A stretch of 64,000 bases of DNA, taken from positions 46,562,001-46,626,000 of the forward strand of contig JBNRSN020000006.1 of the NCBI GenBank assembly GCA_051313645.2. The letters run 5' to 3'. The translations under genes and the position numbers were made by a program. This DNA is from Centroscyllium fabricii (lineage: Eukaryota). This document shows, piece after piece, positions 15,075-64,000 of the stretch (position 1 is the stretch's first letter; the number at the start of each line of letters is the position of its first letter). The notes beneath the pieces were generated by a model. That model ran no database searches. It was not told where the DNA came from and saw only the letters and a list, made by a program, of their open reading frames with translations.

Positions 15075-15111
15075 TCACAAGCTTTCGGAGCGCAGCTCCT
15101 TCCTCAGGTGA
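15075..15111 (-). ncRNA. Minimal type I hammerhead ribozyme motif (Penelope-associated)
   Basis: UCAC-CUGAGGA-A-GGAGC-UGC-GCUCC-GAAA-GC-UU-GUGA: stem I, core, stem II and palindromic stem III all present. Confidence 0.75.
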
Positions 15112-15319
15112 AGTCGAGAGATGCCTATAAACATAGCATATATAGTCGGAGAACAATGCTGGATGATTACAGGTAATCTTTTCAACTGTCCTTCATCACA
15201 GCTCTGTTTGTGGTGTGATGAAGGGCAGTTGGAAAGATTACCTGTAATCATCCAGCATTGTTCTCCGACTATATATGTTGTGTTTATAGGCACCTCTCAA
15301 CTTCACCTGAGGAAGGAGC

Positions 15320-16413
15320 TGTCACAGGGTGCCTGTCCCTTTAAGGTTTCAAAGACAGCTTGGTTGTGTGCAGCACAGCTGTATTGAGGACTTGTTCCCC
15401 TGTTATTCTATTATCTTATCGATTATCTGTTTCACTTGCCTGTGTGTCCCTGTTCTCGTTGCCTGCAGCTTATTGGCTAATACCAAATGATCTGTTTGCC
15501 GGTTTGGCTCATAAGCTGGAGGTCTTGACGAGACAGGTGCGGGATCATTAGCTAGATTCATTGGATTGAATTGAATTTCTTCAAACTACTGGAAGAGCTG
15601 GTTGCTGCTCTGAGCTGCTGGAGAGGCAATGGGTTTGGGAGTTCAATCGCTCAGCCTGGACATTGCACTCTGCTACCTGAAGCTCAGGCTTGGACATTCA
15701 TCTGTCGAGTAAGGGCGTCCCCCTGCTAGTGGATCAGGTATTCTCTTCCTCAGAAGACTCCGTGGGAGTGAGTCTCGACCGCAGGGCGGACTCGGAAGAG
15801 ATCCAGTATCTACTCCTTGGACATTTGGTCATTATCACCCGAACTCAGGTTTGGACGTTGCTGTAGGGTATGTGAGGAGTCCCAAGGATTAAGGATGGAT
15901 TCTCCTTCTGAAAACTCCGAGAGAGTTGGGTTCCTGCTGTTGTGCGGACCCTGGGAGAGTTCCAGTACTAAGGATGGATTCTCCTTCTGAAAACTCCGGG
16001 AGAGATGGGTCCCAGCTGTAGGGCGGACTCTGGGAGAGACCCATTACTTATCCAGGACATTGCTTGCACCCACCTGTATTCAGGTTTTGGACATGTATTC
16101 CTCTAGTCAATGATGCGCTTGGCTGCGTAGCATTCCTCTACTCAATGGTGCGCTTGACTGCGTAGCATTCCACACAACTTTGGGAAGTTTGGTGCCAGTT
16201 CCGAAGGGAACTTGTTTTCTTTCTCTATCTCTGTATTTTTGTAACTGTATGAAGCTTGTGCCAGTCTTTAGCAAAGACTTGTTTAGATGTGTATATATAT
16301 TTGTGTATGAATGCATTTATTGGGTTTTCGGTAATCTGTTTATATTAAAGGAGTTTTGCTCTAGAAAGACGTTTCAGTGTCTCTGCATTTGGGCCCCACC
16401 ACATTCCGTTACA
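15320..16413. mobile_element. Solo LTR (~1.1 kb) with internal tandem repeats
   Basis: TGTCAC...GTTACA termini; 5-bp TSD GGAGC; ATTAAA near 16343; ~80-bp internal repeat units. Confidence 0.8.
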
Positions 16414-28230: not shown

Positions 28231-31222
28231 TGCTGCTGTCCCGGATGATCCTACGGCAAGTGGTTTCGGCAGAGCTGAGTGAAGCCTAATAGTGCTTGAT
28301 ATGGTCCAGCCAGATCTGGTGATGGATGGCTGGACCAGATATGCTCAAGTCTACACTAATTGAACTTGTGAAGATGGGTCACATCGGGGGTCCAACTGGG
28401 ATGAGAGAGAGTAAAGGTTTTGCTGGGGACAAGGGCATCGAGGGAATGGTTGAGCAGATCGATGGGTGCAGAGGTAACATGGCAAATGGAATCGAATCAT
28501 AGAAACTTACAGCACAGAAGGAGGCCATTCGGCCTGTCACTCCCATGCTGGCTCTTTGAAAGTGCAGTCGTGCTTAGTCCCACATCCCCGCTTTTTGTCC
28601 GTATATAATGGAAGGCATAAGGTTAATCATTGGGATGCAGAAAGTGCCGTTGTAAGTGACTTGGGGAGAGTATTTTCCAGGGGCGGACGCAAAAGGCAAA
28701 AAATATCTCCACTGCCTCTACGTGAGATCAAATCGTTGTTCTTTTGAAGAACGGCCCTTGAGATCTGGGCCCCTACACTCCTCAGTCAAGGACAGTAATT
28801 GCTCCCACATCCTTGAAGGAATGGCCCCCTTCCACCATCAGGTCCTCACTCTGAGTGTCAGCGTTGGCTCAGTGGTAAAGTTCTCGCCTCTGGGTTAGAA
28901 GGTTCTCAAGCCCTGCTCCTGAAGCTTGAGCACATAATCTGGGCTGCCATTTTCATGCTGTACCGAGGGAGTGCTGCACTGCTGGAAGTGCTGTCTTTAG
29001 GATGAAATGTTAAAACAAGGCCACGTCTACCCTCTCAGTTGGATGTAACACCCAAAACAGATTAGCTGGTCATTTATTTAATTTCTGTTTGTGGGAGCTT
29101 GCTGTGCACAAATTGGCTGCCGTGTTTCCTACATTACAACCGTGACCACACTTCAAAAGTACTTCATTGGCTGTAAAGTGCTTTGGGATGCCCTGATGCT
29201 GTGAAAGGTGTTGTAATGTAACTGATACCGTATCAATGACCTCGGAGACGAGAAGTTACGAGGTGAACAAAAGGCTTTTATCAGCTAAAAGGTTGGGCAT
29301 GCACCAGCTAGTCGACTGCTCCCAGAATGAATGGGGGGAGGGAGACAGTCGCTTATATACCTGTTCTGGGAGGAGGAGTCACAGGCGGGGCTAGCATGGG
29401 CATGCCCAGGTAAGCAATACACAAAGAACTATATACATTATCACAGGCCGTTGGTTACACACACATATATATACAGAGTGGTTTACCACATTCACCCCTT
29501 GTTTAAAAACAAAGTCCGGTGGGGCGAATGCGAAGCAGTTCTTAGAGATCAAGCCTGTCGGGTGGCCTGGTCTGCCTCGTCGATCGGCGCACCGCTGGTG
29601 GTGGAGTCGGCGGGTGCACCGTTGGCAGTGGAGTCGGTAACAGCGAGGTCGGCGGGGGCGTTCGATCCGTCGTTTGGACCCTTGCGGTAACAATCAGGAG
29701 CGTGCTCTCCCATTCGTCATCCGGCTCGCGGGTGCGTAGACTAGGGGGCCATACTGTGCTGCCTGCAGGTGCTGGGTGGGCATATTGTGGCGCTGGAGCC
29801 TCGTAGTGAGCGGCGAACCGTGGTGCTGGTGCACTGAAGGTGGCGGTAGGCGGGGGGGGGGTGCGGGCTGATGGGTCGTACTGATCTCGAGGGCACCCGC
29901 GGGTGTCAGGTCCTTGATGGACACCGTATCCTCCCTCCCGTCAGGGTACGCCACGTAGGCGTACTGGGGGTTGGCGTGCAGGAAGTGGACCCGTTCGACC
30001 AGGGGGTCCGACTTATGGCCCCTCACGTGCTTCCGGAGCAGGACGGGTCCTGGGGACGATAGCCATGACGGCAGCGAGGTCCCGGAAGCCGACTTCCTAG
30101 GGAAGGCAAAAAGTCACTCGTGAGGGGTGGCGTTAGTGGCCGTACATAAAAGTGACCGAATGGAGTGGAGCGCTTCGGGGAGGACGTCCTGCCAGCGGGA
30201 GACTGGGAGGCCTTTAGACCGTAGGGCTAACAGGATGGCCTTCCAGATGGTGGTGCTCCCCCTCTCTACCTGTCCATTCCCCCGGGGGTTATAGATGGTA
30301 GTCCTGCTAGTAGCGATGCCCTTGGCTAGCAGAAACTGACGCAGCTCGTCACTCATAAAGGAGGCCCCCCGGTCGCTGTGGATGTAGTTGGGGTAGCCGA
30401 ACAGAGAGAAAATGCTGTGAAGTGCCCTGATGACTGGAGGAGGTCATGTCCGGGCAGGGGATGGCGAAGGGGAAACGCGAGTACTCGTCGATAACGTTTA
30501 AAAAGTACACGTTTCGGTTGGAAGAGGGGAGTGGCCCTTTAAAGTCAACGCTGAGTCGCTCAACGGGGCGGGTGGCCTTGATCAGGTGCACCCGGCTGGC
30601 CGAAAGAAGTGCGGCCTGCACTCCGCACAGACCTTGCAGTTTCTGGTCATGGTCTTGACCTCCTCGATGGAGTAGGGGAGGTTGCGGAACTTAATGAAAT
30701 GGACCAACCTGGTGACCCCCGGGTGGCAGAGGTCATTGTGCAGGGTTTGGAGACGGTCCACATGTGCGCTGGCACATGTACAGCGGGACAGGGCGTCTGG
30801 GGGCTCATTGAATTTCCCGGGCCGCTACAAGATATCGTAATTGAAAGCGGAGAGTTCGATTCTCCACCTCAATATCTTGTCGTTCTTGATTTTACCCCGT
30901 GTGGTAACCGTTGATATACAGTTATTTACCACCATAATATTGTGTCCAATATTATCTGTATGTGTAGCGCTCCGGTGCATGATGCAACTGTCCTGTGTTG
31001 CGACACTGTCGTGGGGCCAGGTCAGCCACACCTCTAACTCCTCCCTCAGGTGAGTGCCTTATAGGTGGGGACTGACCGGCCCCCATTAATTCTGTACCTG
31101 ATGTTCGATCGGAGCGTAGCTCCATTGTAAGCTAATAAAAGCCTTGAGTTAAGGTAACTACTCGTCTTTAGTTTTATTAGATTATTGACATTATGTCAAT
31201 TTTATTAGCTTAAAAATTTGAA

Positions 31223-32545
31223 ATGGAGAGCGGCGCTGTGAAACCCGAAAAGCTGGACATTAGTCCACAGGACCCAGCCGCCGCCAACACCTTCGAACAC
31301 CGGTTCGGCCTCCTGGAGGCCTACATGGACGCCGCCAAGGCTACAACCGAGGGGAACAAGTTACAAGTTCTCCGATCCAGAATCTCCAGCCGGGTATTCT
31401 CTTTCATCCGTGACGCCAAAACGTACCCCGATGCGGTGGCTAAACTGAAGAAATGCTACGAGCGCCCGGTCCACTCAGTCTACGCCAGACACGTGCTCGC
31501 GACCAGACCACAACTACCGAGTGAGTCAAATGAGCAGTTCGAGCAGGCGCTCCAAGCCCTGGTCCATGACTGTGGCTGCCAACCACGGACGGCAGAAGAA
31601 GAGGCGAACCTCCTCGTCCGGGACGTCTATGTAACGGGACTCAGGTCCGCAGAGGCCCGCCAGCGGCTGCTGGAAAAAGACTCTTTGACTTTGGAGGAGG
31701 CGATCTCTATCTCCAACTCCGTGGAGGGCGCACGCCGCAAACTGCAGGCATACGGCGGCCCAAACCCACAAGCTTACGATGCGTGGGCAGCCCCACAACG
31801 GGTCGAGACCCCTACGATGGCAGCGGCAGCTGCGAAACCGCCGGCGGAGAAAAGATGCTACTTCTGCGGCCAGGGACTACACCCACGGGTGAAATGCCCA
31901 GCAAAGACCGCGACCTGCGAGAGGTGCTCCAAGAAGGGACACTATGCCAAGGCCTGCAGATCAGCCCCGGCGTCCAGCTCCAGGTACAACAGCGCGGCCT
32001 GCGAAAGCTCTCAGGTAAGCTGCAACTGCAGCGCGACCCAGCGACGATCCGGGGGTAGAGTACAAGCACCCCCGTCTCCCACACTGAGGCGGCAGAGGCC
32101 GGCTGCACCCACGGCACGCCAAACTCAGCTACGGCCGGCCATGCGCGACCCCCCAACGCCAGCATCCCGCCCAGAGCGGCCCGCTGCGTGCGAATCACGG
32201 GCACCGCCAACCCAGCCACTGCGGCCCGCTGCATGCGAACCACGGGCACCGCCACCGCGTCTACAGCGGCCCGCCGCGTGCGAACCACGGGCGCCGGCAT
32301 CTTGTCCGCAGCGGCCCGCCATGTGCGACCCCCCGGCGCCGCCATGTGCGACCCCCCGGCGCCGCCATCTTGTCTTCAGCGACCAGCCATGTGCGACACT
32401 CCGGCGCCGCCATTTTGTCCCCAGAGGCCGGCCAGGTGCGAACCACGGGCGCCACCATCTTTTGTACGGCCCCGACCAGCGGAGGGCTCACACACACACA
32501 CACACACACTTCGGCCTCAGCCATCCCGAAAGTCGATCAGGCTAG
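31223..32545 (+). CDS. Gag of Gypsy B (frameshifted near its end)
   Basis: CYFCGQGLHPRVKC and CERCSKKGHYAKAC zinc knuckles. Confidence 0.85.
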   Translation: MESGAVKPEKLDISPQDPAAANTFEHRFGLLEAYMDAAKATTEGNKLQVLRSRISSRVFSFIRDAKTYPDAVAKLKKCYERPVHSVYARHVLATRPQLPSESNEQFEQALQALVHDCGCQPRTAEEEANLLVRDVYVTGLRSAEARQRLLEKDSLTLEEAISISNSVEGARRKLQAYGGPNPQAYDAWAAPQRVETPTMAAAAAKPPAEKRCYFCGQGLHPRVKCPAKTATCERCSKKGHYAKACRSAPASSSRYNSAACESSQVSCNCSATQRRSGGRVQAPPSPTLRRQRPAAPTARQTQLRPAMRDPPTPASRPERPAACESRAPPTQPLRPAACEPRAPPPRLQRPAACEPRAPASCPQRPAMCDPPAPPCATPRRRHLVFSDQPCATLRRRHFVPRGRPGANHGRHHLLYGPDQRRAHTHTHTHFGLSHPESRSG

Positions 32546-35175
32546 GCCTCACACCCTATCAAATTCCATGATGGGGATTAAAGTTAACGGCCATGTCACG
32601 AACTGCCTGTTCGACACCGGAAGCACAGAGAGCTTTATTCACCCCGATACAGCGCAGCGCTACGGACTGCAGATCCGGCCCACGCGCTACCAAGTCTCCC
32701 TTGCTTCACAGTCCCACACCGCGGACATCACCGGCTACTGCTCCGTCACGCTCACAGTTAAGGGCAGCGTGTACCGTCATTTTAAATTGTACATTCTGAA
32801 GCAGTTGTGCTCCCCAGTCTTACTCGGACTGCATTTCCAGTGCCACCTTAAGAGCCTGACAATGGAGTTCGGCGGGACCCTGCCCCCCCTCACCGTCAGT
32901 AGCTGGGACAATCCCTTCCCAAAGCGGAGCCCGGCCTGCGGCCTCTCCACCCTGAAAGTCGACCCCCCCTCACTGTTCGCCAACCTCGACCCCAACTGCG
33001 AACCCATTGCTACCAAGAGTCGGCGTTACAGTGCAGGGGATCGGACGTTTATCAGGTCGGAGGTCGGGCGTATGCTAAAGGAGGGGATAATTGAAGCCAG
33101 CACCAGCCCCTGGCAGGCCCAGGTTGTAGTGGTGAAGACTGGTGAGAAACACCGGATGGTTATCGATTATAGCCAGACCATTAACCACTACACCGGGCTC
33201 GACGCCTACCCCCTCCCCCGCATCTCGGAAATGGTTAACCAGATTGCCCAATACAAGGTGTTCTCCACAATCGACCTTAAGTCGGCGTATCACCAACTCC
33301 CGATCCGGAAAGCCGACCGCCCGTACACCGCCTTCGAGGCGAACGGTCGGCTCTACCATTTCCTCCGGGTCCCCTTCGGCGTGACCAACGGAGTGTCAGT
33401 GTTCCAACGGGAGATGGACCGCATGGTTGACCAAAACGGGTTGCAGGCCACCTTCCCCTACCTGGACAACGTGACTATCTGCAGCCATGACCAGCAGGAC
33501 CACGATGCCAACCTGGCCAAATTTCTCCACACAGCGAAACGGCTGGATCTCACGTACAACAAAGACAAGTGTGTCTTTAGTACAGATCGGCTCGCCATCC
33601 TCGGATACGTGGTGGAAAACGGGGTCCTCGGCCCCGACCCACAGCGTATGTGCCCCTTACAGGAACTGCCCCTTCCTCACAACCCCAAAGCCCTGAAGAG
33701 ATGTCTAGGATTTTTCTCTTATTGCGCGCAATGTGTTCCCCAATTCGCGGATAAGGCCTGACCGCTCCTCAAGGCTGCCGTCTTCCCCCTCTCGGCAGAA
33801 GCCCACACGGCGTTCGCCCGGATCAAGGAAGATATCATCAAGGCGACCATGCACGCCGTTGATGAGTCCATCCCTTTCCAGGTGGAGAGTGACGCTTCGG
33901 ACTTTGCCCATGCCGCCACCCTGAATCAGGCAGGCAGGCCCGTAGCGTTTTTCTCCCGCACCTTACAGGGACCCGAAATTTGCCACTCTGCAGTGGAAAA
34001 GGAGGCTCAGGCCATCGTGGAGGCCGTGCGCTACTGGCGTCATTACCTGGCCGGTAAGCGTTTTACCCTGCTCACCGACCAACGGTCGGTCGCGTTTATG
34101 TTTAACAATAAACAAAAGGGTAAAATCAAGAATGATAAGATCCTGCGGTGGCGGATCGAGCTCTCGACTTACGAGTGCGACATTCTTTACCAACCAGGCA
34201 AACTCAATGAATCCCCCGGACGCACTGTCCAGGGGAACGTGCGCCAGTGCCCAGCTAGACCGGCTGAAGGATCTCCACGATCGCCTCTGTCACCCGGGTG
34301 TCACCAGACTTGCCCACTTCGTAAAATCCCGTAGCCTCACTTACTCCATCACGGAGATCAAGTCTATGACCCGAGAGTGCCCTGTTTGCGCCGAGTGCAA
34401 ACCCCAATTTTTCAGGCCAGACACGGCGCATCTCATTAAGGCCACTCGCCCCTTTGAACGTCTAAGCGTGGACTTAAAAGGCCCCCTCCCCTCCACCGAC
34501 CGCAACTCGTACTTCCTCACGGTCGTAGACGAGTTCTCCCGCTTCCCCTTCGCCTTCACCTGCCCAGATATGACGAGCGCAATGGTGATCAAACACTTCA
34601 CCATGCTGTTCGCCATTTTTGGTCTCCCCAGCTACATCCATAGCGACCGGGGGGCGTCGTTCATGAGCGACGAACTGCACCAGTTTCTGCTCCAGAAAGG
34701 GGTTGCCTCGAGCAGAACGACCAGTTACAACCCCCGGGGGAACGGCCAGGTAGAAAGGGAGAATGGGATCATCTGGAAGGCGGTCACCCTGGCCCTGAAG
34801 TCCAGAGCCCTTCCAGTGTCCCATTGGCAGGCAGTCCTTCCTGATGCGCTGCACTCGATCCGCTCTCTGCTATGTACGGTCACCAACGCCACACCTCATG
34901 ACCTTATTTTTTCATTCCCCAGGAAGTCGACTTCGGGGACAGCCCTTCCACCGTGGCTCAAGACGCCGGGGCTGGTCTTGCTTAGGAAGCACGTCCGCGG
35001 CCATAAGACCGACCCCCTGGTGGACAAGGTGCAGCTGCTGCATGCCAACCCGCAGTACGCGTACGTACAGTTCCCGGACGGGCGCGAGGACACCGTCTCC
35101 ATCAAGGACCTAGCACCCGCCGGGAGCACCACAGCAGAGCCCCTGGTCGGGCAGCAGCCCGCCCAGCCACTATAG
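32510..35175 (+). pseudogene. Pol of Gypsy B (protease, RT, RNase H, integrase) with a stop at 33759 and a frameshift near 34215
   Basis: FDTGS; PFG; YLDN; ESDASD..EKEAQA..TDQ; HHCC; DDE core (SVD, HSDRG, NGQVER). Confidence 0.9.
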
Positions 35176-35814
35176 TTCGGCCACCTCCAGCCGCGACATA
35201 TCGACCACTGGCCGATACACGACCCACAACCCACCTGAGGCTGGCCGCCACTACCGCGTGGTCTAGAGCCCCAGCCATGGCCAGCCGAGGACCACGACTT
35301 GGATGGCTCGGGCTCACCGCCACCACCAGCACCCACAGTACCGACACCGGCGCCGCCTTCACCACCATCGGCCCCAACGTCGCCAGTGCTACAGGAACCG
35401 GAACAATTGACAGAGACCCGGCGGTCCACCAGACAGACGCGACCGCCGGACAAACTAATCATGAACTGCTCTGTCCATTCACCCCGCCGGACTTGATTTT
35501 TTAAGAAGGGGTGAATGTGGTAACCGTTGATATACAGTTATTTACCACCATAATATTGTGTCCAATATTATCTGTATGTGTAGCGCTCGGGTGCATGATG
35601 CAACTGTCCTGTGTTGCGACACTGTCGTGGGGCCAGGTCAGCCACACCTCTAACTCCTCCCTCAGGTGAGTGCCTTATAGGTTGGGACTGACCGGCCCCC
35701 ATTCATTCTGTACCTGATGTTCGATCGGAGCATAGCTCCATTGTAAGCTAATAAAAGCCTTGAGTTAAGGTAACTACTCGTCTTTAGTTTTATTAGATTA
35801 TTGACGATACGTCA

Positions 35815-38598
35815 TAGAATCATAGAATCATAGAAGATAGGAGCAGCAGTAGGCCATTCAGCCCTTTGAGCCTGCTCCACCATTCAATGAGATCATGGCT
35901 GATCTTTAGCAAGCTAGTAACCCGTCCCCGCCTTTTCTCCATAACCTTTAATCCCTTTAGCTTGAAGAAATATATCCAATTCCCTCTTGAATATGTTTAA
36001 TGAACTGGCCTCCACTGCCCTCTGTGGCAGGGAATTCCACAGGCCCACCACTCTCTGAGTGAAGAAATTCTTCCTCATGTCTGTCCTAAATGGTTTACCC
36101 CTTATCCTTAGACTGTGGCCCCTGGTTCTGGACTCCCCCGCCATTGGAAACATTCTCTCTGAATCTAACCTGTCCAGACCTTTCAGAATTTTTTACGTCT
36201 CAATGAGATCGCCTCTCAATCTTCTAAACTCCAATGAGTACAAGCCCAGACTACACAATCTCTCCTCGTAGGTCATTCCTGCCATTCCAGGAATCAGCCT
36301 GGTGAAACGCCACTGCACTCCTTCCATGGCAAGAACATCCTTCCTCAGGCGAGGCGACCAGAACTGTACACAATACTCGAGGTGTGGTCTCACCAGTGCC
36401 TTGTACAGCTGCAGTAAGGTATCCTTATTCCGATATTCGAACCCTCTTGATATGAAGGCCAACATACCATTTGCCTTCCCAACCGCCTGCTGCACCTGCG
36501 TGCTCGCCTTCAGCGACTGGTGCACAAGAACACCCAGGTCTCTCTGCACCTCCCCATCTCCCAATCTATTGCCATTTAAGTAGTAATCTGACCTCCTGTT
36601 TTTGCCCCCAAAGTGGATAACCTCACATTTATCCACATTATAGTGCATCTGCCATCTATCTGCCCAGTCCCCCAACTTATCCAAATCGCCCTGTAACTTC
36701 CTGACACCCTCTTCAGAGCCTGCCCCCCCTCCTAGTTTGGTGTCGTCCGCGAATTTGGAGATATTACATTCAATTCCCTGATCCAGATCATTAATATATA
36801 TTGTAAACAGCTGAGGTCCCAGGACAGACCCCTGCGGTACTCCACTAGTCACCGGCTGCCACTCAGAAAACGAGCCGTTAATTCCAACTCTCTGTTTTCT
36901 GTCTGCCAACCAGTTCTCTATCCACATCAAAACTTTGCCCCCAATCCCATGAGCCTTAATTTTACATGCTAATCTTTTATGTGGAACCTTATCGAAAGCT
37001 TTCTGGAAGTCAGGTACACCACATCTACTGGCTCTCCCCCATCTATTTTCCAAGTTACTTCCTCAAAGAATTCCAATAGATTAGTTAAACATGATTTACC
37101 TTTTGTAAACCCATGTTGACTCTGTCCGATCCCATCCCTACTTGTCAAATGCTCCGAGATTACATCCTTGATGATGGACTCGAGCATTTTGCCCACTACT
37201 GATGTAAGGCTTACTGGTCTATAATTCCCTGCTTTCTCTCTGCCCCCCTTTTTAAACAGTGGGGTAACATTAGCCACCCTCCAATCCGTGGGTACTGATC
37301 CAGAGTCTATTGAGTTCTGGAAAATGATCCTTAATGCACCCTCTATTTCCGGGGCTACCTCTTTAAGTACCCTAGGATGTAGATTATCAGGCCCTGGGGA
37401 TTTGTCGGCCTTCAATCCCTTCAACTTCCCCAAAACCATCTCCCTAGAAATACTGATATCTGTCAGCTCCTCCCTTGCCTTGGACCCTATGTTCGCTGCA
37501 ATTCCTGGGAGGTTGCTTGTGTCCTCCTTTGTGAAGACAGTACCAAAATATGAATTTAGTTGGTCTGCCATTTCTTTATTCCCCATTATATATTCCCCTG
37601 AATCGGACTGCAAGGGACCGACTTGGGATTTTACCAATCTTTTCCTATTGATGTACCTATAAAAGCTTTTGCAGTCAGTTTTTATGTTTGCCGCAAGCTT
37701 ACATTCATAATCTATCTTCCCCCTCCTGATTAATCCCTTTGTCTTCCTTTGCTGTATCCTGAACTGCTCCCAATCTTCCGGCCTGGTACTTTTTTTGGCC
37801 AATTGATATGCCCATTTTTTGGATTTAATGTTGTCCCTTATTTCCCTTGTTATCCACGGTTGAGTCACCTTTCTAGGTTTATTCTTATGCCAAACCGGTA
37901 TGAACGAGTTCTGTATTTCTTCCATCCTATACTTGAATGCTTGCCATTGTCTATCCACATTCAATCCCCCCGGGAACACTGCCCAATCTATCTTGCTTAA
38001 TTCCCTTCTCATACCTTCATAATTCCCTTTATTTAAATTCAGGACCTTAGTCTCTGAGTTGATCTTTTCACTTTCCATCTCAACTGAGAATTCGATCATA
38101 TTATGATCGCTCTGACCCAAGGGGCCTCGTACAACGAGATTGTTAATTAGTCCTTTCTCATTGCACAATACCCAGTCTAAGATGGCCTGATCCCGAGTTG
38201 GTTCCTCAACATATTGGTCCAGATACCCATCCCGTAGACATTCTAGGAATTCCTCCTCCTCAGTATTTTTACTAACTTGGCTAGTCCAATCAATATGTAG
38301 ATTAAAGTCGCCCATGACGACAGCTGTGCCCTTATTGCAAGCTTCTCTAATTTCCCTTTTTATGCCGTCCCCCACCTCCATATTACTATTTGGAGGCCTG
38401 TATATAACTCCCACTAATGTTTTCCGCCCTTTACTATTTCTTAGTTCTACCCATATAGATTCCGTATCATCTGAGTTAATATCCTTCCTTTCAATTGCAT
38501 TTATCCCCTCTTTCATCAGCAATGCCACCCCACCTCCCTTTCTTTTGTGCCGATCCTTTCTGAATGTTGTATACCCCGGGATGTTGAGTTCCCAGCCT
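35815..38598 (-). mobile_element. CR1 LINE, near-complete ORF2, 5'-truncated in the endonuclease
   Basis: ORFs 36969-38612, 36193-37053 and 35914-36153 carry APE and RT motifs; (CTATGATT)n tail abuts the Gypsy B 3' LTR. Confidence 0.95.
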
Positions 38599-41500
38599 TT
38601 GTTGTTGAACATACAAGCGACTGAGCGTTGGTCAGTCAGCAGGTTAAATCGTTTTCCGGCCAGGTAGTGCTTCCAGTGTCACACTGCTTCAACAATGGCC
38701 TGGGCTTCCTTCTCCACAGAAGAGTGACGGGTCTCGGGGCCCTGGAGAGTGCGTGAGAAGAAGGCCACGGGTCTGCCCGCCTGGTTAAGGGTGACGGCCA
38801 GGGCAAAGTCCGATGCATCACTCTCTACTTGGAACAGGACGGCCTCGTCCACAGCATGCATCGTGGCCTTTGCGATGTCTCTCTTTATGCCGCAGAACGC
38901 CGTGCGGGCCTCTGCCGACAGGTGAAAGGAGGTTGATTTAAGTAGTGGGCGGGCTTTGTCCGCGTAGTTGGGGACCCACTGGGCGTAATAAGAAAAGAAC
39001 CCCAAGCACCTTTTCAGGGCCTTGAGGGAGTGGGGGAGGGGGAGCTCCAGGAGGGGGCGCATGCGGTCCGGGTCGGGACCGATGACCCCATTCTCCACAA
39101 CACTGCCGAGGATGGCAAGGCGGGTTGTCCTGAACACACATTTTTCCGTGTTATAGGTCAGGTTTAATGTTTTGGCGGTGTGGAAACATTTCTGGAGGTT
39201 GGCGTCATGGTCCTGCTGGTCGTGGCCGCAGATGGTCACATTATCAAGATACGGAAAGGTGGCCCGCAGTCCGTACTGATCAACCATTCGGTCCATCTCT
39301 CTTTGGAAGACTGAGACCCCGTTGGTGACGCCAAACGGAACCCTGAGGAAGTGATAGAGGTGACCGTCAGCCTCGAAGGCAGTTTAGTGACGGTCCTCCG
39401 AGCGGATGGGGAGCTGGTGGTACGCAGACTTCAGATCGATGGTCGAGAAGACCCGAAACTGAGCGATCTGGTTCACCATATCCGCTGTGCGGGGGAGGGG
39501 ATACGCATCTAGCTGCGTAAACCGGTTGATGGTTTGACTGTAGTCCACAACCATCCGGTGTTTGGCTCCGGTCTTCACAACCACTACCTGTGCCCTCCAG
39601 GGGCTATTACTGGCCTCGATGACCCCCTCCTTCAGGAGCCGCTTCACCTCAGACTTGATGAAGTCTCTGTCCCCGGTACTGTAGCGCCTACTTTTGGTGG
39701 CGACGGGCTTGCAGTCCGGGGTGAGTTTGGCAAAGAGCGAGGGGGGGCGACCTTAAGGGTCGAGAGGCCGCAGGTAGCGCGCTGTGGGTACTGCGGGGAG
39801 CGCTGGTTGCTGACCGTGAGCGGGGGAAGGGTCCCACCGTACGCCATCGTAACGCTCTGGAGGTGGCACTGAAAGTCAAGGCCCAGGAGTAAGGGAGCGC
39901 AGAGCTGCGGCAGCACGAATACTTTAAAATTATTGAAGTGTACGCCCTGCACTGCCAGGGTCACTACGCAGCGACCGCAGACGTCCGCAGAGTCGGACTT
40001 AGATGCCATCGAGCTTTTTTGGCTAGTCGGCATGACTGGATGGATGAAGCTCGCCGTGCTCCCGCTGTCAAAAAGGCAATCCGTGCTCCGCCTGTTCACC
40101 TGCACCGTCATCATAGATCTGCTCAGTGGCTGGCTCTTGTTCTGGTCGACTGTGATGGAGGCCAGTATCCGGTCGGTCGAGTCGGTTGAGAGGTCTGGGG
40201 CCTGTTCCCAAGATGGCTGCCGCCACGCGGCGGGCTGTGATGGAGATGGCTGTGTCCAGGATGGCGTCTGCTCCCACGCGGCGGGCTGTGATGAAGATGG
40301 CTATGTCCAAGATGGCTGCCCCCACGGCCCACATGCGGTGCTGCCCGGTTTGGAGGGCGGTATTGCCGCTGCTCTGCAGACTTTAGCGAAATGTCCTTTC
40401 TTACCGCACTTAGAGCAGGCCGCGTCTCTCGCCGGGCAGTTTCGCCTGGGATGTTGGGCTTGGCCGCAGAAATAACATTTAGGCCCTCTCGAGTGCATAG
40501 CCGCAGTCATCTCTTCCGCCGGTCGCGGCGCGGCCGGCTGTGCCCAAGATGGCGGCGTCGGCGCTGTGACCGCGTGGTTGCCCGAGTAAGAGGACATGTT
40601 AAGGGACGCCAAGTCCAGTGCGTTCCCCAGGTCAGCTGTCGCCTGCAGGTCCATGCCATTTTGTTCCAAAAGTCTCTGGTGGATGTAATCGGACCTGAGG
40701 CCAGTCACATAAGCGTCCCTGATGAGACTTTCCGAGTGCACCTGGGCTGTCTGTGACTTACAGTTGCAGACCCGGTAGAGGACTCTCAGCGCTCGTAAGA
40801 ACTCCACGCTCGATTCCCCGGGTTGCTGCTTTCTGGTGGCCAGGAGGTGTCTGGCATGGACGAGGTTCGGTGTCCGGTTGTACTCGGCTTTCAGAATTCA
40901 GATCACATCTAAGTAGGACGACGCATCCGCGATTATCGAGTAAACTTGGGGGCCCACCCGGGCGTTGGGAAGGCGCCGCTTGTCCTCCTCCATCTGGACG
41001 ACCGCTGCGTTGGCTGCGAGGAACGCCTTGAAACAGCTGAACCAGTGCGTAAAAGTATTGGAGGCGCCATTGTTTGGGGATCCAGTTCAAACGTCGCTGG
41101 TTTGAGCATGGTCTCCATGGTTAAATTTAGCTAATAAAATTGATACCGTATCAATGACCTCGGAGACGAGAAGTTACGAGGTGAACAAAAGGCTTTTATT
41201 AGCTAAAAGGTTGGGCATGCACCAGCTAGTCGACCGCTCCCAGAATGAATGCAGGGAGGGAGACAGTCGCTTATATACCTGTCCTGGGAGGAGGAGTCAC
41301 AGGCGGGGCTAGCATGGGCATGCCCAGGTAAGCAATATACAAGGAACTATATACATTATCACAGGCCGTTGGTTACACACATATATATATACAGAGTGGT
41401 TTACCACAGTTACTACTACAGAGACTCATCCGAGGTGTCTAGGGCCTAGAATCTGCCTTTACTTGAGCGGACCCGCCCCCGTTCCCCCATCGGTCAGTTG

Positions 41501-46083: not shown

Positions 46084-49000
46084 TGTAATGATATCAGCAA
46101 ACAGTGATCATGTTTGCCTGTTTGACTATCTATGCCTTACTAGCAGAGGAATCATAGTTGCCTGTTTGATTATCCATGCCTGGCCAGCAGAGGGCATGTG
46201 ACAAGAAGCCAGTGCTGTATAAGTTAGTTTTGGTTTCAGTTTAAGATGGATCTCTAAGATGGAGCCTTTGTAAAGCCTGTGTAAGCCTCATGGAAAAGCT
46301 ACAAGTTACTTTAATATACTTTAGATTAAACAACATTCTCCTTCATTAATGTGTCATCTTGGAACACACATACAAAACAAAACATGGTGTCAGAAATGGA
46401 AAGAAGGAAATGAAGAGAAAAAATCTGAAGTTAGCAACTAACCAGCGAAATCAGCTCTCCATAAAGCAAGCAAAAAGAGAACATCGTTACTTACCTTTGG
46501 AGAATAGCTAACGAAGTGAAAAATGGAAGGGTTACACCCACCGGCGAAACTTCAGTTGACAGGTAATGTGGCTGAAAATTGGAACAGATTTAAACAACGT
46601 TTTGAGTTGTATTTAGCGGCAATCGGAGCTGATGAGAAAAGTGATAAAATGAAAGCGTCGGTGTTCTTACATGTCGTGGGTGATGAAGCGCTGGAGGTGT
46701 ATAATAACCTCACATTCGCTGCTGATGGAGACAAAATGAAGTTGGATAAAATAATGGAACAGTTTGAGGCATAATACATACTTAAACATAATGTGACGTT
46801 TGAGAGGCACAGATTTTTCACATGTGTACAGAAAACGGGAGAAACTATTGATCAGTATGTGACTGAACTGAGAAACAGAAGCAAAACATGTGAATTTGGT
46901 GAACTGACAGACTCGCTGATAAAAAACAGACTTGAGTGTGGCATTCCAGATAATAATCTAAGGGAAAGACTGCTAAGAGAGCAAAATCTAGACCTGGAAA
47001 AACATAGCACTTGTCGGGCTACAGAGACTGTAAAGTCGCAGGCAAAGGAGCTGTTCAGTGAAAGTAACTGCAACGTGGATGCAGTGAGAAAGAACGGACA
47101 CAAACCATTTAACAAAAAGAGCGCCAACATGAAAAAAGAGGCGTGGCCAGAGAGCAGAAATGGAAGGGGCAATTGAAAGCCATGTAGTCGATGCGGTACA
47201 CAACACCTACCAAAAAAGTGTCCAGCATATGGTAAAACATGCAATATTTGCAACAAAATCAACCATTATGCCCGTTGCTGTAGGAACCAAGTGAACCAAA
47301 GCAAGGTCCATGCAGTAGATGAAAGGGAGATAGAGGAGTTCTACGTGGACGTTATGTCTGAAAACAAAAAAGAAAAAGCGACTGGATGTTGACATTGAAA
47401 GTGAATGACATACACATTTCATTTAAATTGGATACTGGAGCACAAATTAATGTGATATCAGAGACTGATTTTAAGAAAATTAGACCCAAACCAAAGATAG
47501 ATGGAACAAAAGTGAAAGTGACAGGATACTCAGGTACTGATATACCAGTGCAAGGAAAATGCATTGTCTAAGTGACACACAAGGACAGAGAGCACATGCT
47601 AGCATTCATCGTGGTGCCAAAGGATGTGCAAGCCATACTAGGCTTAATAGCCTGTGAGAGACTGAACCTGGTAAAGAGAGTCCTTGTTGTGGAAAGCGAA
47701 GGAGAGACAGTCTATGATGAACTCATGAAAGAGTACAACAACCTATTTCAGGGTCTAGGCTGCCTTCCAGGAGAACACATGATCAGTGTAGATAACAGTG
47801 TGCCACCGATCATACATCCATGCAGAAAAGTTCAGTTTGCTCTTCAAAAGCAACTGAAAGCAGAGTTGTACAGCATGGAAAGCCTGAATATGATTCAAAA
47901 GATAAATGAGCCAACTGAGTGGGTGAGTTCCCTCGTCGTTGTGGACAAAAAGAATGGAAATCTCAGACTTTGCCTGGATCCAAGAGATCTAAACAGAGCA
48001 ATAAAGAGAGAGCACTTCAAGCTTCCGACTCATGAGGAAATCATGTCAAAGAGTGGGACTTTGTCCACACAACGTCAAGTCCTCATTTTCCACAGTCCAA
48101 TGGACTAGTGGAAAAATCGGCACAGACAGTGAAAAGACTGATGTACAAGGCAAAAGATAGTGGAACTGACTTCTACCAGAGCATGCTAGTATACCGCACA
48201 ACGCCGCTCGAGTGTGGTATGTCACCAGCCCAACTCCTTATGGGACGTAGGCTAAGGTCAAACCTACCCATCCCGGAGAACCTCCTGAAAACAAAAGAGG
48301 GGGAGAAAGTGAGGAAGTTCAAAGAACAACAGAAAGAAAAGCAAAAGTACTACTTTGACAGAGGAACACAAAACCTACCTGAACTCCACACTGGTGACCA
48401 AGTAAGGCTCAAAGACAAAACAAACATATGGACTCAGAAGGGAACTGTCCTTAGTGAAGTTCAACCAAGATCATACACCATTCAGACAGATGAAGGTGCT
48501 GTTCTTCGAAGAAATCATCGAGATCTTCTCATGGGACCAGCCACAGCAGGCAGAAAGACTGATACTGTTGAACAGCCTGATTACACAGCTGATAAGACAA
48601 CTCAGATTCAAGGACAATCAATCAGGAGATTGTCAAGACACATGACACCTCCTGAGAGACTCATAGAGCAAATTTAAAGACTCTTGTTATAGAATGAAGT
48701 AGTGTTATCTTATTCGCTCTTCAAGTTCTAGTGTATGTACATATTTCATGTGAACACACAAAACAAGGTTAAAAAACCTTAATAATGACAATGTAAGTTC
48801 ATTAAGTGTTAAAGTTAAAATTATAGAGTAATACAAAGAAAACATGTTGGTAGTTAAAAGTAAGTTATTTTGTTTTAAGAAAGGGAGATGTAATGATATC
48901 AGCAAACAGTGATCATGTTTGCCTGTTTGACTATCTATGCCTTACTAGCAGAGGAATCATACCTACCTGTTTGATTATCCATGCCTGGCAGCACAGGGCA

Positions 49001-49188
49001 TGTGACAAGAAGCCAGTGTTGTCTAAGTTATTTTTGGTTTCAGTTTAAGATGGATCTCTAAGATGGAACCTATGTAAAGCCTGTGTAAGCTTCATGGAAA
49101 AGCTGCAAGTTACTTTAACATACTTTAGATTAAACAACATTCTCCTTCATTAATGTGTCGTCTTGGAACCCACATACAAAACAATACA
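46084..49188 (+). mobile_element. Internally deleted Mag-like Gypsy C
   Basis: ~300-bp LTRs at 46084-46384 and 48889-49188; TSD CTGAG; PBS TGGTGTCAGAA (tRNA-Leu type); gag; LDTGA protease; RT N-terminus joined to the integrase C-half at ~48050; PPT. Confidence 0.92.
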
Positions 49189-49583
49189 CTGAGTGAGAGC
49201 CGACAGGGCCTCAGTGTAACGTCTCATCCAAAAGACAGCACCTCCGACAGTGCAGCACTCCCTCAGAACTACACTGGCGTGTCAGCCTATATTTTTGTGC
49301 TCAAGTCTCAGGAGTGGGACTTGAACCCACAACCTTCTGACGCAGAAGCAAGAGTGCTACCCCCTGAGCTGTGGATGACTTGCTGACTCCCTGTTTGCTC
49401 CAAACTACTTGACTTAACAGCTCAATGCTCAATTGACCTCCAATAGTCATAAATGCTTTTTAACATTCCTGACCATTCCTGGCAAACTCCTCAGCTCACA
49501 GAGCAAGGATTCAGTCCCCATCTCAGGATGAGCTATGCTCCCACCCCACTAAGCAAGGATTAAATTTGGGGCCTAGATTCTAT

Positions 49584-59800: not shown

Positions 59801-60940
59801 GGGCTGAATCTTAACTCAAAAAGTTGGGTGGGTGTGATTGTGTCAGATGTTAAAATGCAAAAAATCTGGAACAGGACCCAAACCCGCCTTGAACCGGCCC
59901 ACTTCCAGTTTTAATGGAGGCAGGAAAAGTGGTGGGCGACCAATCTGCTCATGGGAAGTGGGTTGGTCTTTTTAAATATTATAATGAGGCTGCCTGCCTT
60001 CATTTTAACACTCATTCTATTTTTAACCACAGGCAGCCGAATTTCCCAGACCTCAAGAAACCGGGCAGCTTAAAGGAGGCAAGAGGGGCTGAATCTAAGG
60101 TAAATGCCTCACAAGACTGCTTGTGGGCCAGGAGGAGCAGGAGTGTTTCCTCTAGGCACAACAAGCTACCCAGTAACCCCCTCTCCCCGCGATCTATCTG
60201 CTCCCCTCGCCCAACCACCACCATCCCCCCAGACCACCATCACACCCTCCCACAACTGAGACCACCAGACCACCATCGCACCCCCTCACAACTGAGACCG
60301 CCAGACCACCATAGCACCCCTCACACTGAAACCGCCAGACCACCATCGCACCCCCTCACAACTGAGACCGCCAGACCACCATAGCACCCCCTCACACTGA
60401 GACCGCCAGACCACCATCGCACCCCCTCACAACTGAGACCGCTAGACCACCATAGCACCCCCTCACACTGAGACCGCCAGACCACCATCGCACCCCCTCA
60501 CAACTGAGACCACCAGACCACCATCACACCCTCCCACAACTGAGACCACCAGACCACCATCACACCCTCCCACAACTGAGACCACCAGACCACCATCGCA
60601 CCCCCTCACAACTGAGACCACTAGACCACCATCACACCCTCCCACAACTGAGACCACCAGACCACCATCACACCCCCTCACAACTGAGACCGCCAGACCA
60701 CCATAGCACCCCCTCACACTGAGACCGCCAAGCCAACATCGCACCCCCTCAGAACTGAGACCGCCAGACCACCATCACACCCCCTCACAACTGAGACCAC
60801 CAGACCATCATCTCTCCCCCTCACAACTTATACCAACAGACCACCATCACACCCCCTCACAACTGAGACCCCCAGACCACCATCGCACCCCCCACAACTG
60901 AGACCGCCAGACCACCATTGGACCCCCCCAAATTGGGACA
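59801..60940. mobile_element. Harbinger-like element (family of 10135-10973), truncated after the minisatellite
   Basis: Shared blocks AATGAGGCTGCCTGC and GGCAGCT.AAGG.AGGC. Confidence 0.5.
60229..60919. repeat. ~36-bp C-rich minisatellite, about 19 units
   Basis: Unit CCAGACCACCATC(A/G)CACCCCCTCACAACTGAGACC(A/G). Confidence 0.95.
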
Positions 60941-61039: not shown

Positions 61040-64000
61040 TGTGGTGGGTCGCCACCTAAACGGGCAAATCTGCTCCGACATCCACGGACGCCTCACCAGG
61101 CAACACGCCTGCAAGACTCTACTCGCTCAGAGCTCGGCTGCTGACGCGCTGACGTCATCACGCAGCCGTACCGGTATGCGCACTCTTGTCATGACGCAGC
61201 CATACCCGCTTACGGGCTGACGTCATGATGCAGCCCGCCCTGTATATATTTGAATGAAAGAGCGCGAATCGCTCACTCTGTACCGCGATGCTACTAAAGT
61301 AAGTTCTGTTTAACTCATTCGGTCTCGGCATCTACTCGTGTCCACCAGCAGCCTCAACACTGGTGACCCCGACACTCGGAACGAATTCCGAGCCCTGCAA
61401 TGGCGGACACAAATGCAGTTTCGGTCATACTGCCTGAGTTCTGGGAAAACCTGGCCACAGCCTGGTTCCTCCAAGCTGAGTCCCGGTTCAGGATACAGTG
61501 AATCAACAGAGGTGGCACGATGTACGACTACCTCGTCGCCTCGCTGAGTAGCTCCACGGTCACGAAGGTCTGGACAATGCTGCAGAACCCACCTGAGCAT
61601 GGCAAGTAAGCACATCTTAAAGCAGTGCTCCTTAAAAAAGTCACGGCCTCCCAATATACACGCAACTGCCGGCTCCTCGACCTTCCAGGCCTCGGTGACG
61701 CCTCACCGTCAGACCTGCTCTCCCATATGCTCTCGCTCACAGAGGAGAAGCCACCAGGGTCCCTCTTCCGAGCGTTATTCATCCGCCAGCTACCACCCAG
61801 CATCTGGTCCACTGTCGTGGCAGCTGACCACAAGGACCTAGCTGTTCTGGCCGATGAGGCCGACAAGCTCCTGTCTGCCCAATCCAGCCGCGACACCATC
61901 TCCAACATGGCCGCCGCCGCCACGGCGCACCCGCCACATCCTTCACACGGCCACAAGGCCCACGCGGCCGACGCGACCCTCAAGCCCTCCGAACCCGGGG
62001 TACTGCTACTACCACGCACGGTTCAGCATCAGGGCGTTACGGTGCACACAGCCCTGCACCTTCAAACCCGCCCTCACACCGGCCCCTACCATGGCCGTGG
62101 GGCACGCGGGCCCACTACTGTACATCACGGATGGCAAAACAGGCCGCCGTTTCCTGTGCGACACTGGTGCACAGCACAGCATTGTTCCCGCCTCCGCCCT
62201 CGAAATTCAAAAAGGGCGCACGAGGACCAGCACTCGCTGCTGCAAACGGGTTGGACATCCGGACGTACGGCACCCGCACGGTCACAATCGACCTCGCCGG
62301 TCGCCGCTACCAATGGGAGTTTATCGCAGCTAAGGTACTCTCACCCCTGCTCGGTGCGGATTTCCTGTGCGCACACGGCCTACTGGTCGACATGTCCTGG
62401 CGCCGCCTCGTGGACATGAACACCATGTCCCCCATCCCTGGCACCATGGCCCCTGCCCAGCCCGCCTACTCGGCACTCCTGGCCGAGTTCCCGGCCCTCA
62501 CCAACGCAACCTTCACAGCTAAGGTCGCCAAGCACGGGGTGGAACATTTCATCCCCACCACAGGGCTGCCAGTACATGCCCACGCCCGCAGGCTGGACCC
62601 GGCCAACCTGGAGATCGCGCGGAACGAGTTCGCCATGATGGAGCAACTCGGTATCATCCGCCGCTCCAACAGCCCCAGGGCCTCCCCACTCCACATCGCC
62701 CCCAAACCCGACGGGGGCTGGCGCCCCTGCAGGGATTACCGCCGCCTTAACGATGCCACTACACCTGATCGGTACCCCGTACCACACATTCAGGACTTTT
62801 CGGTGAGACTAGTCGGCTGCTCAGTCTTCTCCTAAGTCGACCTGGTGCGCGGATATCACCAAGTCCCCGTCCATGCCAACGACATCCCCAAGACGGCCGT
62901 AATTACACCCTTCGGCCTGTTCGAGTTCCAGAGAATGCCCTTCGGCCTCAAAAGCGCAGCCCAGGTATTCCAGCGGCTAATGGATTCGGTCCTACGGGAC
63001 CTGAAGTTCCTGTTCGTCTACCTGGATGACATCCTGATAGCCAGCTCCTTCAAACAGGAGCACCTCAAACACCTTAGAACTCTGTTCAAGTGTCTCAGCG
63101 AACACTGGCTCATCCTCAGCCCGGCCAAGTGCCAGTTCGGCATGGACCGCATCGACTTCCTCGGCCACCACATCACCCAGGCCGGCGCCATTCCCCTGCC
63201 CACCAAGGTGCAGACCATCCAGCAGTTCCCCCGCCCCAACACCATCAAGGGCCTACAAGAGTTCCTGGGGATGGTGAACTTTTACAACCGCTTCATCCCC
63301 AAATCGGCATCCCTCATGGGCCCCCTCTACCAAGCCCTCTGAGGCAAGAGCGGCAAGATGGCGGTCGAATGGACGGCGGATGCCTCCGCTTCCACCAAAT
63401 CAGCGCTCGCCGATGCCACCCTGCTCACACATCCACAGCCCAACGCCAAAGTAGCACTCACCATGGACGCCTCCGACCACGCGGTCGGAGCTGTGTATGA
63501 GCAGTGGGTCGACGGCGCCTGGCAGCCCCTCGCCTTTTTCAGCTGCCAACTGTGCCCCCCAGAGGTGAACTACAGCTCCTTTGACCGCGAGCTCCTCGCG
63601 CTGTACCTGGCGGTCCACCATTTTTGGTTCTTGCTGGAGGGCCACCCCTTCACCGCGTTTGTCGACCACAAACCCCTGACATTTGCGATGGCAAAAGCAA
63701 CCGACCCTTGGTCTGCCAGACAGCAGCGCCAGCTTGTAGCTGTGTCCGAATTTACCATGGACATCCAGCACGTCTCCGGTCGAGACAACGTGGTAGCCGA
63801 CTGCCCCTCCTGCCCAGCCATCCACGCCATACACCTGGCAGTCAACTACGGCCAGCTCGCAGCGGACCAGCTCACAGACCCTGACCTGCTCTCCGCACCC
63901 ACCAGCCTACCCTGCCTGCAGTTGGCCGACGTCGCCTGCGGCCCTACCGCGGTCGCAATCAAATGCGACGTGTTCCTGCCCCAACCCCGGCCCATCGTCC
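61040..64000 (+). mobile_element. CsRn1-like Gypsy E (5' LTR 61040-61359, tRNA-Trp-type PBS, gag, protease, RT, RNase H; runs off the window)
   Basis: PBS TGGTGACCCCGAC at 61361; gag start MADTNAVSVILPEFW; FLCDTGA; TPDRYPVPHIQDF; YLDD; DASD; several stops and frameshifts. Confidence 0.92.

Follow-up and report, generated by a model that had tools for sequence, protein, structure and literature searches.

The window analyzed here, a 64-kb stretch of the genome of Centroscyllium fabricii, harbours two nested Ty3/Gypsy elements, which we call A and B. Element A runs on the minus strand from 41408 to 29223 and is interrupted by a LINE and by element B. Its 268-nt 5' LTR (41141..41408) differs from the 3' LTR (29223..29490) at eight positions, and a polypurine tract region (29509-29491) lies directly before the latter. 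The flank is GTAAC at the 5' LTR and GTTAC at the far end, with four of five bases of the target site duplication (TSD) in agreement. The first part of the element (38601..41118) codes for gag, protease (PR), reverse transcriptase (RT) and most of RNase H, and is broken by stops at 40900, 39386 and 38681 as well as by frame changes; the remainder (29510..30899) comprises the end of RNase H, an integrase with five stops, and the 3' region. Element B, on the plus strand, opens with a 299-nt LTR of the TG...CA type (30900..31198) that differs from its 3' LTR (35516..35814) at seven positions, and has a polypurine tract region at 35497..35515. Its gag-PR-RT-RNase H-integrase frame (31223..35175) is also broken, by a frame change between gag and pol, a stop at 33759 and a further frame change near 34215.

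The RNase H region of A is split by element B (30900-35814) together with a 5'-truncated LINE on the minus strand (35815..38600), which lies between B and the left part of A and whose RT motif FADD, at 36753, leads us to take it for a CR1-type element. No TSD of B is visible, and its 3' end abuts the LINE. Element B has inserted into its own relative, the two being 74% identical in DNA over RT. In both, pol has the order protease-RT-RNase H-integrase, as in all four intact relatives analyzed with Pfam. Between gag and protease, B carries a 45-nt imperfect tandem repeat and an (AC)n tract (32136-32515), to which shorter repeats of A, near 40330-40220, are related. Elsewhere in the window we observed a separate LTR element (46185-49198) with LTRs 92% alike, a TGG-type primer site, a broken gag-like match (46523-47305) and no match to pol; a tandem array of 36-nt units (60190-60929) upstream of a Gypsy element bearing YLDD (about 61500-63850); and an inverted repeat (15093-15321) whose 108-nt arms are 94% complementary and 13 nt apart. 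ARAGORN found no tRNA genes within the 64-kb window.

Both elements carry the RT motif YLDN, encoded by TAC CTG GAC AAC in B (33459..33470, plus strand) and by TAT CTT GAT AAT in A (39240..39251, minus strand). As the initial annotation had read it, the motif sits in FPYLDNVTIC in both copies with all four codons synonymously different, and the other two Gypsy RTs of the window have YLDD (63019) and QMDD (54608). In phmmer alignments, YLDN matches YLDD of Ty3 RT (4ol8) column for column. The Asn, at 33468-33470 in B and directly after the second triad Asp (33465-33467), is at the position of Ty3 D214, in a triad published as D151/D213/D214 (PMC5371799, in the text accessible to us). The first catalytic Asp of RT is intact in B (33273..33275, plus strand, within STIDLKSAYHQ) and in A (39435..39437, minus strand). 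In the three-Asp active site D...YxDD, the third position is therefore Asn in A, in B and in 91 of 138 non-redundant relatives, the latter obtained from 165 aligned RT-RNase H sequences by filtering to 90% identity and to D or N at the site. The predicted fold of the YLDN RT is that of a normal RT: the AlphaFold model (pLDDT 88.6) has the motif at the hairpin that connects strands 155-158 and 161-166, and its best Foldseek match is Ty3 RT (E 1.1e-19). A search of the ESM Atlas returned generic RT clusters only.

We conclude that a large and old Ty3/Gypsy clade of animals carries YLDN as its inherited motif. Among the 120 nearest RT homologs, retrieved with queries that all bore N and therefore biased upward in their N fractions, 92 are xxDN, 23 xxDD and 5 other, with the first Asp kept in 119 and the second in 117. 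DN is frequent among these nearest homologs and absent from all 47 RTs below 40% identity, so that YxDN in A and B is not due to chance. We also built a FastTree phylogeny of 218 RTs in which the domain was covered, the first Asp intact and the motif DN or DD, with the trait column removed. In this tree, many nodes of which are weak, the relatives make up one clade with 173 members (support 0.996), monophyletic with respect to 44 outgroups that include no named Tf1 or sushi sequence. Nested within it is a group of 139 (support 0.905), of which 112 are N; outside this group N occurs in only 2 of 35, and the early branches are mostly YxDD.

The nearest named RTs to A and B are from catshark (79-80% identity). 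Named YxDN members come from Scyliorhinus, Hypanus, Narcine, Styela, Actinostola, Pocillopora, Dicrocoelium and Plakobranchus, a host range that covers corals, an anemone, a tunicate, a fluke, a mollusc, sharks and rays, and further YxDN clusters have members named from Acropora, Montipora and Porites. Members with xxDD include those of Trichuris, Trichinella and Trichonephila. No relatives were found in a scan of viral contigs.

Clade elements measure 4.0-4.9 kb and encode a gag-pol of some 1,200 aa. DN is present in 94 of 120 long homologs, and the 85 with a whole gag-pol of at least 1100 aa divide into 64 YxDN and 21 YxDD. The best 80 of 503 metagenome loci comprise 51 DN, 26 DD and 3 other; six of these 80 have an LTR pair together with an uninterrupted ORF of 1190+ codons, every one of them YxDN, and two YLDD loci have whole ORFs with no LTR pair in the contig. 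Three YxDN loci (L010, L011 and L015) combine intact ORFs and 5-bp TSDs with LTRs that are 99.0-99.6% identical. In a fourth with an intact ORF (L014, also YxDN) the LTRs are 92.7% identical, and in two more YxDN loci (L001 and L002) they are 100% identical, perhaps an effect of assembly. In Pocillopora verrucosa, four RefSeq loci encode 1181-aa YIDN proteins with 99.2-99.5% identity, and the cluster to which they belong has YIDN in all 12 members that cover the motif. Young intact copies, which the initial annotation had proposed to inspect for YLDD, thus carry YxDN, and its view of Asn as a lineage trait rather than the decay of one copy is supported.

The element family is very abundant in four public runs, with 221,237 contigs of run X1 placed on B. 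Position 33468 lies outside the 40 best-supported differences (632 more rank lower), which include the neighbouring positions 33476 and 33483; a minority of YxDD copies may thus exist in the host.

Asn might nonetheless be a product of decay in dead copies, through CpG deamination of GAC/GAT or its G-to-A hypermutation, as D to N takes one transition, both window copies are broken, and GAC AAC of B could derive from a CpG. However, the Asn codon is preceded by GAT in 26 of 51 N loci, which leaves no CpG, AAT and AAC both occur, the neighbouring Asp is kept in the same GA context, and N is found in unbroken ORFs with near-identical LTRs, so that decay is almost certainly not the explanation.

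Substitution patterns indicate that the RT of the clade is under purifying selection, with pN 0.11 and pS 0.78 between A and B, and dN 0.036 and dS 1.03 between L001 and L004. The other two Asp of RT and the D-E-D of RNase H are kept in all 138 non-redundant sequences. These data bear on the idea, raised in the initial annotation, that the family depends on a YxDD partner in trans, the YxDN polymerase itself being dead. YxDD families do exist in the clade (the 26 DD loci given above), but the two Asp with a purely catalytic role are present in every one of the 91 N members, dN stays far lower than dS, whole gag-pol ORFs persist among N members, and one assembly series is N in 12 of 12 of the matches listed (L005, L009-L012, L014, L015, L018, L019, L031, L037, L064). 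Given the purifying selection on RT, we regard such dependence as very unlikely.

The N/D state at the third triad site changes at least 17 times on the tree, a number that may be overcounted because of weak nodes, and none of seven clusters is mixed among the members listed. It is possible, though we think it rather improbable, that Asn is mildly adaptive for some other reason, such as attenuated transposition, metal preference or germ-line nucleotide levels, an explanation compatible with the one that we favour below. The site is almost only D or N, N prevails in the group of 139 over long branches, and the Ty1 D211N mutant prefers Mn2+ (PMC2148107, accessible text); against this, the state has switched repeatedly, and multi-copy families exist in both states, with YxDN clusters of 114-137 members and one YLDD cluster of 205.

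Our search for compensating residues gave no significant result among those listed for the 12 top associations in independent pairs (11 pairs, hence low power). Of the raw associations with N, the strongest is located in RNase H, where an Asn 152 residues past the motif is present in 80 of 91 N members versus 11 of 47 D members, and the same column ranked top in a smaller sequence set; controlling for the tree, 3.4 of the 11 pairs went the same way and 0.7 the other way (median p 0.375). Thirty columns separate the whole clade from the 44 outgroups. In particular, Ser replaces the Arg of DYR in 160 of 173 clade members, Arg being present in 42 of 44 outgroups, and motif B has Gly-Val in the clade versus Ala-Pro in the outgroups.

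Taken together, we consider it highly probable that the RT of the YLDN clade polymerises with two essential Asp, while the third triad position tolerates either Asn or Asp. According to the accessible text of PMC2148107 and PMC5371799, Ty1 D211N and Ty3 D214N RTs keep polymerase activity, the other two Asp being essential, and both mutants lose transposition in vivo; kpol of Ty1 D211N is 223-fold lower, and RNase H suppressor mutations restore 5-10% of its transposition (PMC2148107). What the initial annotation states of Ty1, some polymerase activity with transposition blocked, is therefore correct as far as this source goes. In the clade, the metals would be held by the motif-A Asp and the first Asp of YxD, and Asn at the third site would keep the geometry at some loss of rate or processivity. 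The column comparison suggests that changes common to N and D members throughout the clade might form a permissive background, with DYS for DYR, SPWRAQ, TNGV for xNAP and a Gly five residues past the motif as candidates. As such a background would be present in all members, no single switch-specific suppressor would be needed. Nevertheless, because the same replacement abolishes transposition in Ty1 and Ty3, tolerance of Asn in the clade needs a cause, and our analysis found none. A short genome was considered and set aside as this cause, since the belpaovirus Atlas is 9.2 kb and yet has YVDN (10.1101/2021.11.23.469668, accessible part). Of the proposal that the lineage transposes with a non-canonical triad, we retain that this triad likely works in young intact carriers; it is, however, less exceptional than it seemed, as about a quarter of the clade is YxDD and belpaoviruses have YVDN.

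Downstream of the 5' LTR, both elements show an unusual primer site. In B, the primer-binding site (31200..31212, plus strand) starts one base past the LTR end, lacks a TGG start and is the reverse complement of a 13-nt candidate self-primer in the LTR (31128..31140, plus strand), which contains AATAAA and has a short CCT...AGG hairpin after it. In A, a 14-nt candidate self-primer (41194..41207, minus strand) is likewise complementary to the primer-binding site (41126..41139, minus strand), again set off by one base from the CA of the LTR. Such pairing recurs in the clade, whose primer sites do not start with TGG: 30 of 34 readable leaders pair with their own LTR at 10 or more of 12 positions, and in 11 representatives cognate arms pair at a mean of 11.7 of 12 positions versus 8.1 across families. 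For covariation we used 21 leaders chosen from the 30 pairing ones, so that the percentage paired, 97% of cells, is inflated by selection; nine of 13 pairs change on both sides. None of 500 shuffles reached the percentage paired or the covariation score, and two of 500 reached the count of pairs.

From this analysis, the clade likely primes itself as in Tf1: 13-17 nt of its own LTR would anneal to the primer site, with RNase H expected to cleave behind ...WAAA. The primer arm ends in WAAA, usually followed by RCC opening a short hairpin (31130-31140 in B, 41194-41204 in A), and the loop between primer arm and primer site spans only 21-68 nt. Within the arm of the 21 leaders, G is present at -10 in 21 and A at -11 in 19. 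This conserved AG fits a transcript start there; pairing that continues past it does not, nor do the motifs resembling a TATA box and an initiator that lie some 40 nt upstream in A and B. The LTRs of A and B are otherwise dissimilar and have in common a TATA-like box with CATTCATTCTG after it, some 40 nt ahead of the primer arm (31058-31092, plus strand, in B, with one mismatch in the 5' LTR; 41278-41240, minus strand, in A), which is a possible start site.

Some further observations concern this pairing. Two near-identical copies (L010:3682-3764 and L011:3682-3764) differ in a single pair, G-C in one and T-A in the other, with both arms changed at once, which would follow if every cycle copies the primer site anew from the self-primer, and at L070:130-209 a 13-nt self-complement lies out of the usual register to the LTR end. 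Several families have no A(A/T)TAAA in the arm, which weakens the idea that the pairing serves only to mask the 5' poly(A) signal, although such masking may be an additional role. We rejected a tRNA-Ile fragment as the primer, as the arm differs between families while the pairing stays.

The initial annotation had suggested a possible link of Asn to this unusual priming and proposed to test whether YxDN co-occurs with a self-complementary primer site. The site is real, but it is not specific to YxDN: it is found in all six YxDD loci with a readable leader (11-12 of 12 positions) and in 24 of 28 others, although five of the six YxDD leaders belong to a weakly supported group beside the N-rich group and the leaders read stop short of the deepest branches. 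Asn is therefore not needed for self-priming, and the proposed link is unsupported. Selection of Asn through self-priming, a slower polymerase or an altered balance of polymerase and RNase H suiting an element's own RNA primer, would agree with the joint presence of Asn and a self-complementary site in one clade, with the partial rescue of Ty1 D211N by RNase H mutations (PMC2148107), with the need of Tf1 priming for RNase H (PMC7175516, PMC6317226; accessible text in each case), and with the location of the top raw association with N in RNase H. We nevertheless find it improbable, as the six YxDD loci also pair, the association in RNase H loses significance once the tree is controlled for, and belpaoviruses arrived at YVDN separately (10.1101/2021.11.23.469668, accessible part).

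As a whole, YxDN is a genuine active-site variant, ancient and widespread, of a Gypsy clade that likely primes itself. One may speculate, with slight confidence, that the clade remodelled its polymerase site, making the third Asp optional, and that Asn then spread by tuning polymerase against RNase H for a tRNA-free primer from the poly(A)-signal region. If this were true, the natural pairs of N and D sisters would contain the second-site solution to which suppressor genetics in Ty1 came close without reaching it.

More broadly, the role of the last Asp of YxDD is unsettled, as Asn kills Ty1 and Ty3 transposition and spares polymerisation. The clade offers dozens of intact natural Asn enzymes along with close Asp sisters, making the question testable without engineered mutants. 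Pipelines that score YxDN copies as dead would wrongly discount a family which is present in very high numbers in its host and has recently multiplied in corals. A compact RT with tRNA-free priming may also interest enzyme developers.

Concerning classification, the clade has the Ty3/Gypsy features of TG...CA LTRs, a polypurine tract and short TSDs (those of 5 bp mentioned above), and among solved structures its RT is closest to that of Ty3. The double zinc knuckle in its gag presumably resembles that of Mag, and by its motif we take the QMDD RT of the window to be Mag-like; this RT is 28% identical to the clade RT and falls outside the clade. A Mag C-clade identity of the clade was not supported, since Hydra1-1 is a Copia and the window's Mag-like RT lies among the outgroups; 'Selgy' was rejected as a self-priming Gypsy, being a Selaginella clade. 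Like the metazoan Gypsy clades Mag A/B/C, CsRN1, Cigr-1 and MolGy1-16, ours is an animal Gypsy lineage of wide range (PMC6238403, PMC8556966); the accessible parts of these two papers do not mention PBS or YxDD for the Mag, CsRN1, Cigr-1 and MolGy clades, and YLDN, LDNIT and SPWRAQ are absent from the five text supplements of the former, which concern MolGy, PolGy and Cigr-1. In our literature search we found no publication on a YxDN Gypsy clade, although Repbase and GyDB, which like most subscription journals lay outside it, may well hold such families; nor did the search find one on self-priming in animals beyond Tf1/sushi.

Like Tf1/Tf2 and Tf1/sushi, the clade has a primer site that pairs with its own LTR-derived RNA and is not of the tRNA type (PMC7175516, PMC6317226, as far as their accessible text goes). 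However, the pairing mostly involves 13-17 nt in the YxDN clade versus 11 in Tf1/sushi, and the primer of the clade may lie within R over the poly(A) signal, whereas that of Tf1/sushi is at the first base of the transcript (same sources). Moreover, unlike in Tf1/sushi chromoviruses, no chromodomain family matched any of four full proteins (P0277, P0138, L015, L001) at E 0.001.

With respect to the active site, the laboratory mutants Ty3 D214N and Ty1 D211N concern the same triad position and keep polymerase in vitro, but they cannot transpose, whereas Asn in the clade is the wild type of recently multiplied elements (PMC5371799, PMC2148107, accessible text). The closest natural parallel is provided by nematode belpaoviruses such as Atlas of Ancylostoma ceylanicum, which is intact, with identical LTRs and a natural YVDN (10.1101/2021.11.23.469668, accessible part). 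As YVDN in intact belpaoviruses has already been published, a working YxDN element is not unprecedented, and the two systems share a natural replacement of the second Asp of YxDD by Asn in intact elements. They differ in that Atlas is a BEL/Pao element of 9.2 kb with a Gag-Pol-Env of 2,828 aa (same source), whereas the YxDN clade belongs to Ty3/Gypsy, is about half as long with a far shorter gag-pol, has no match to an env family, and switches between N and D at the site.
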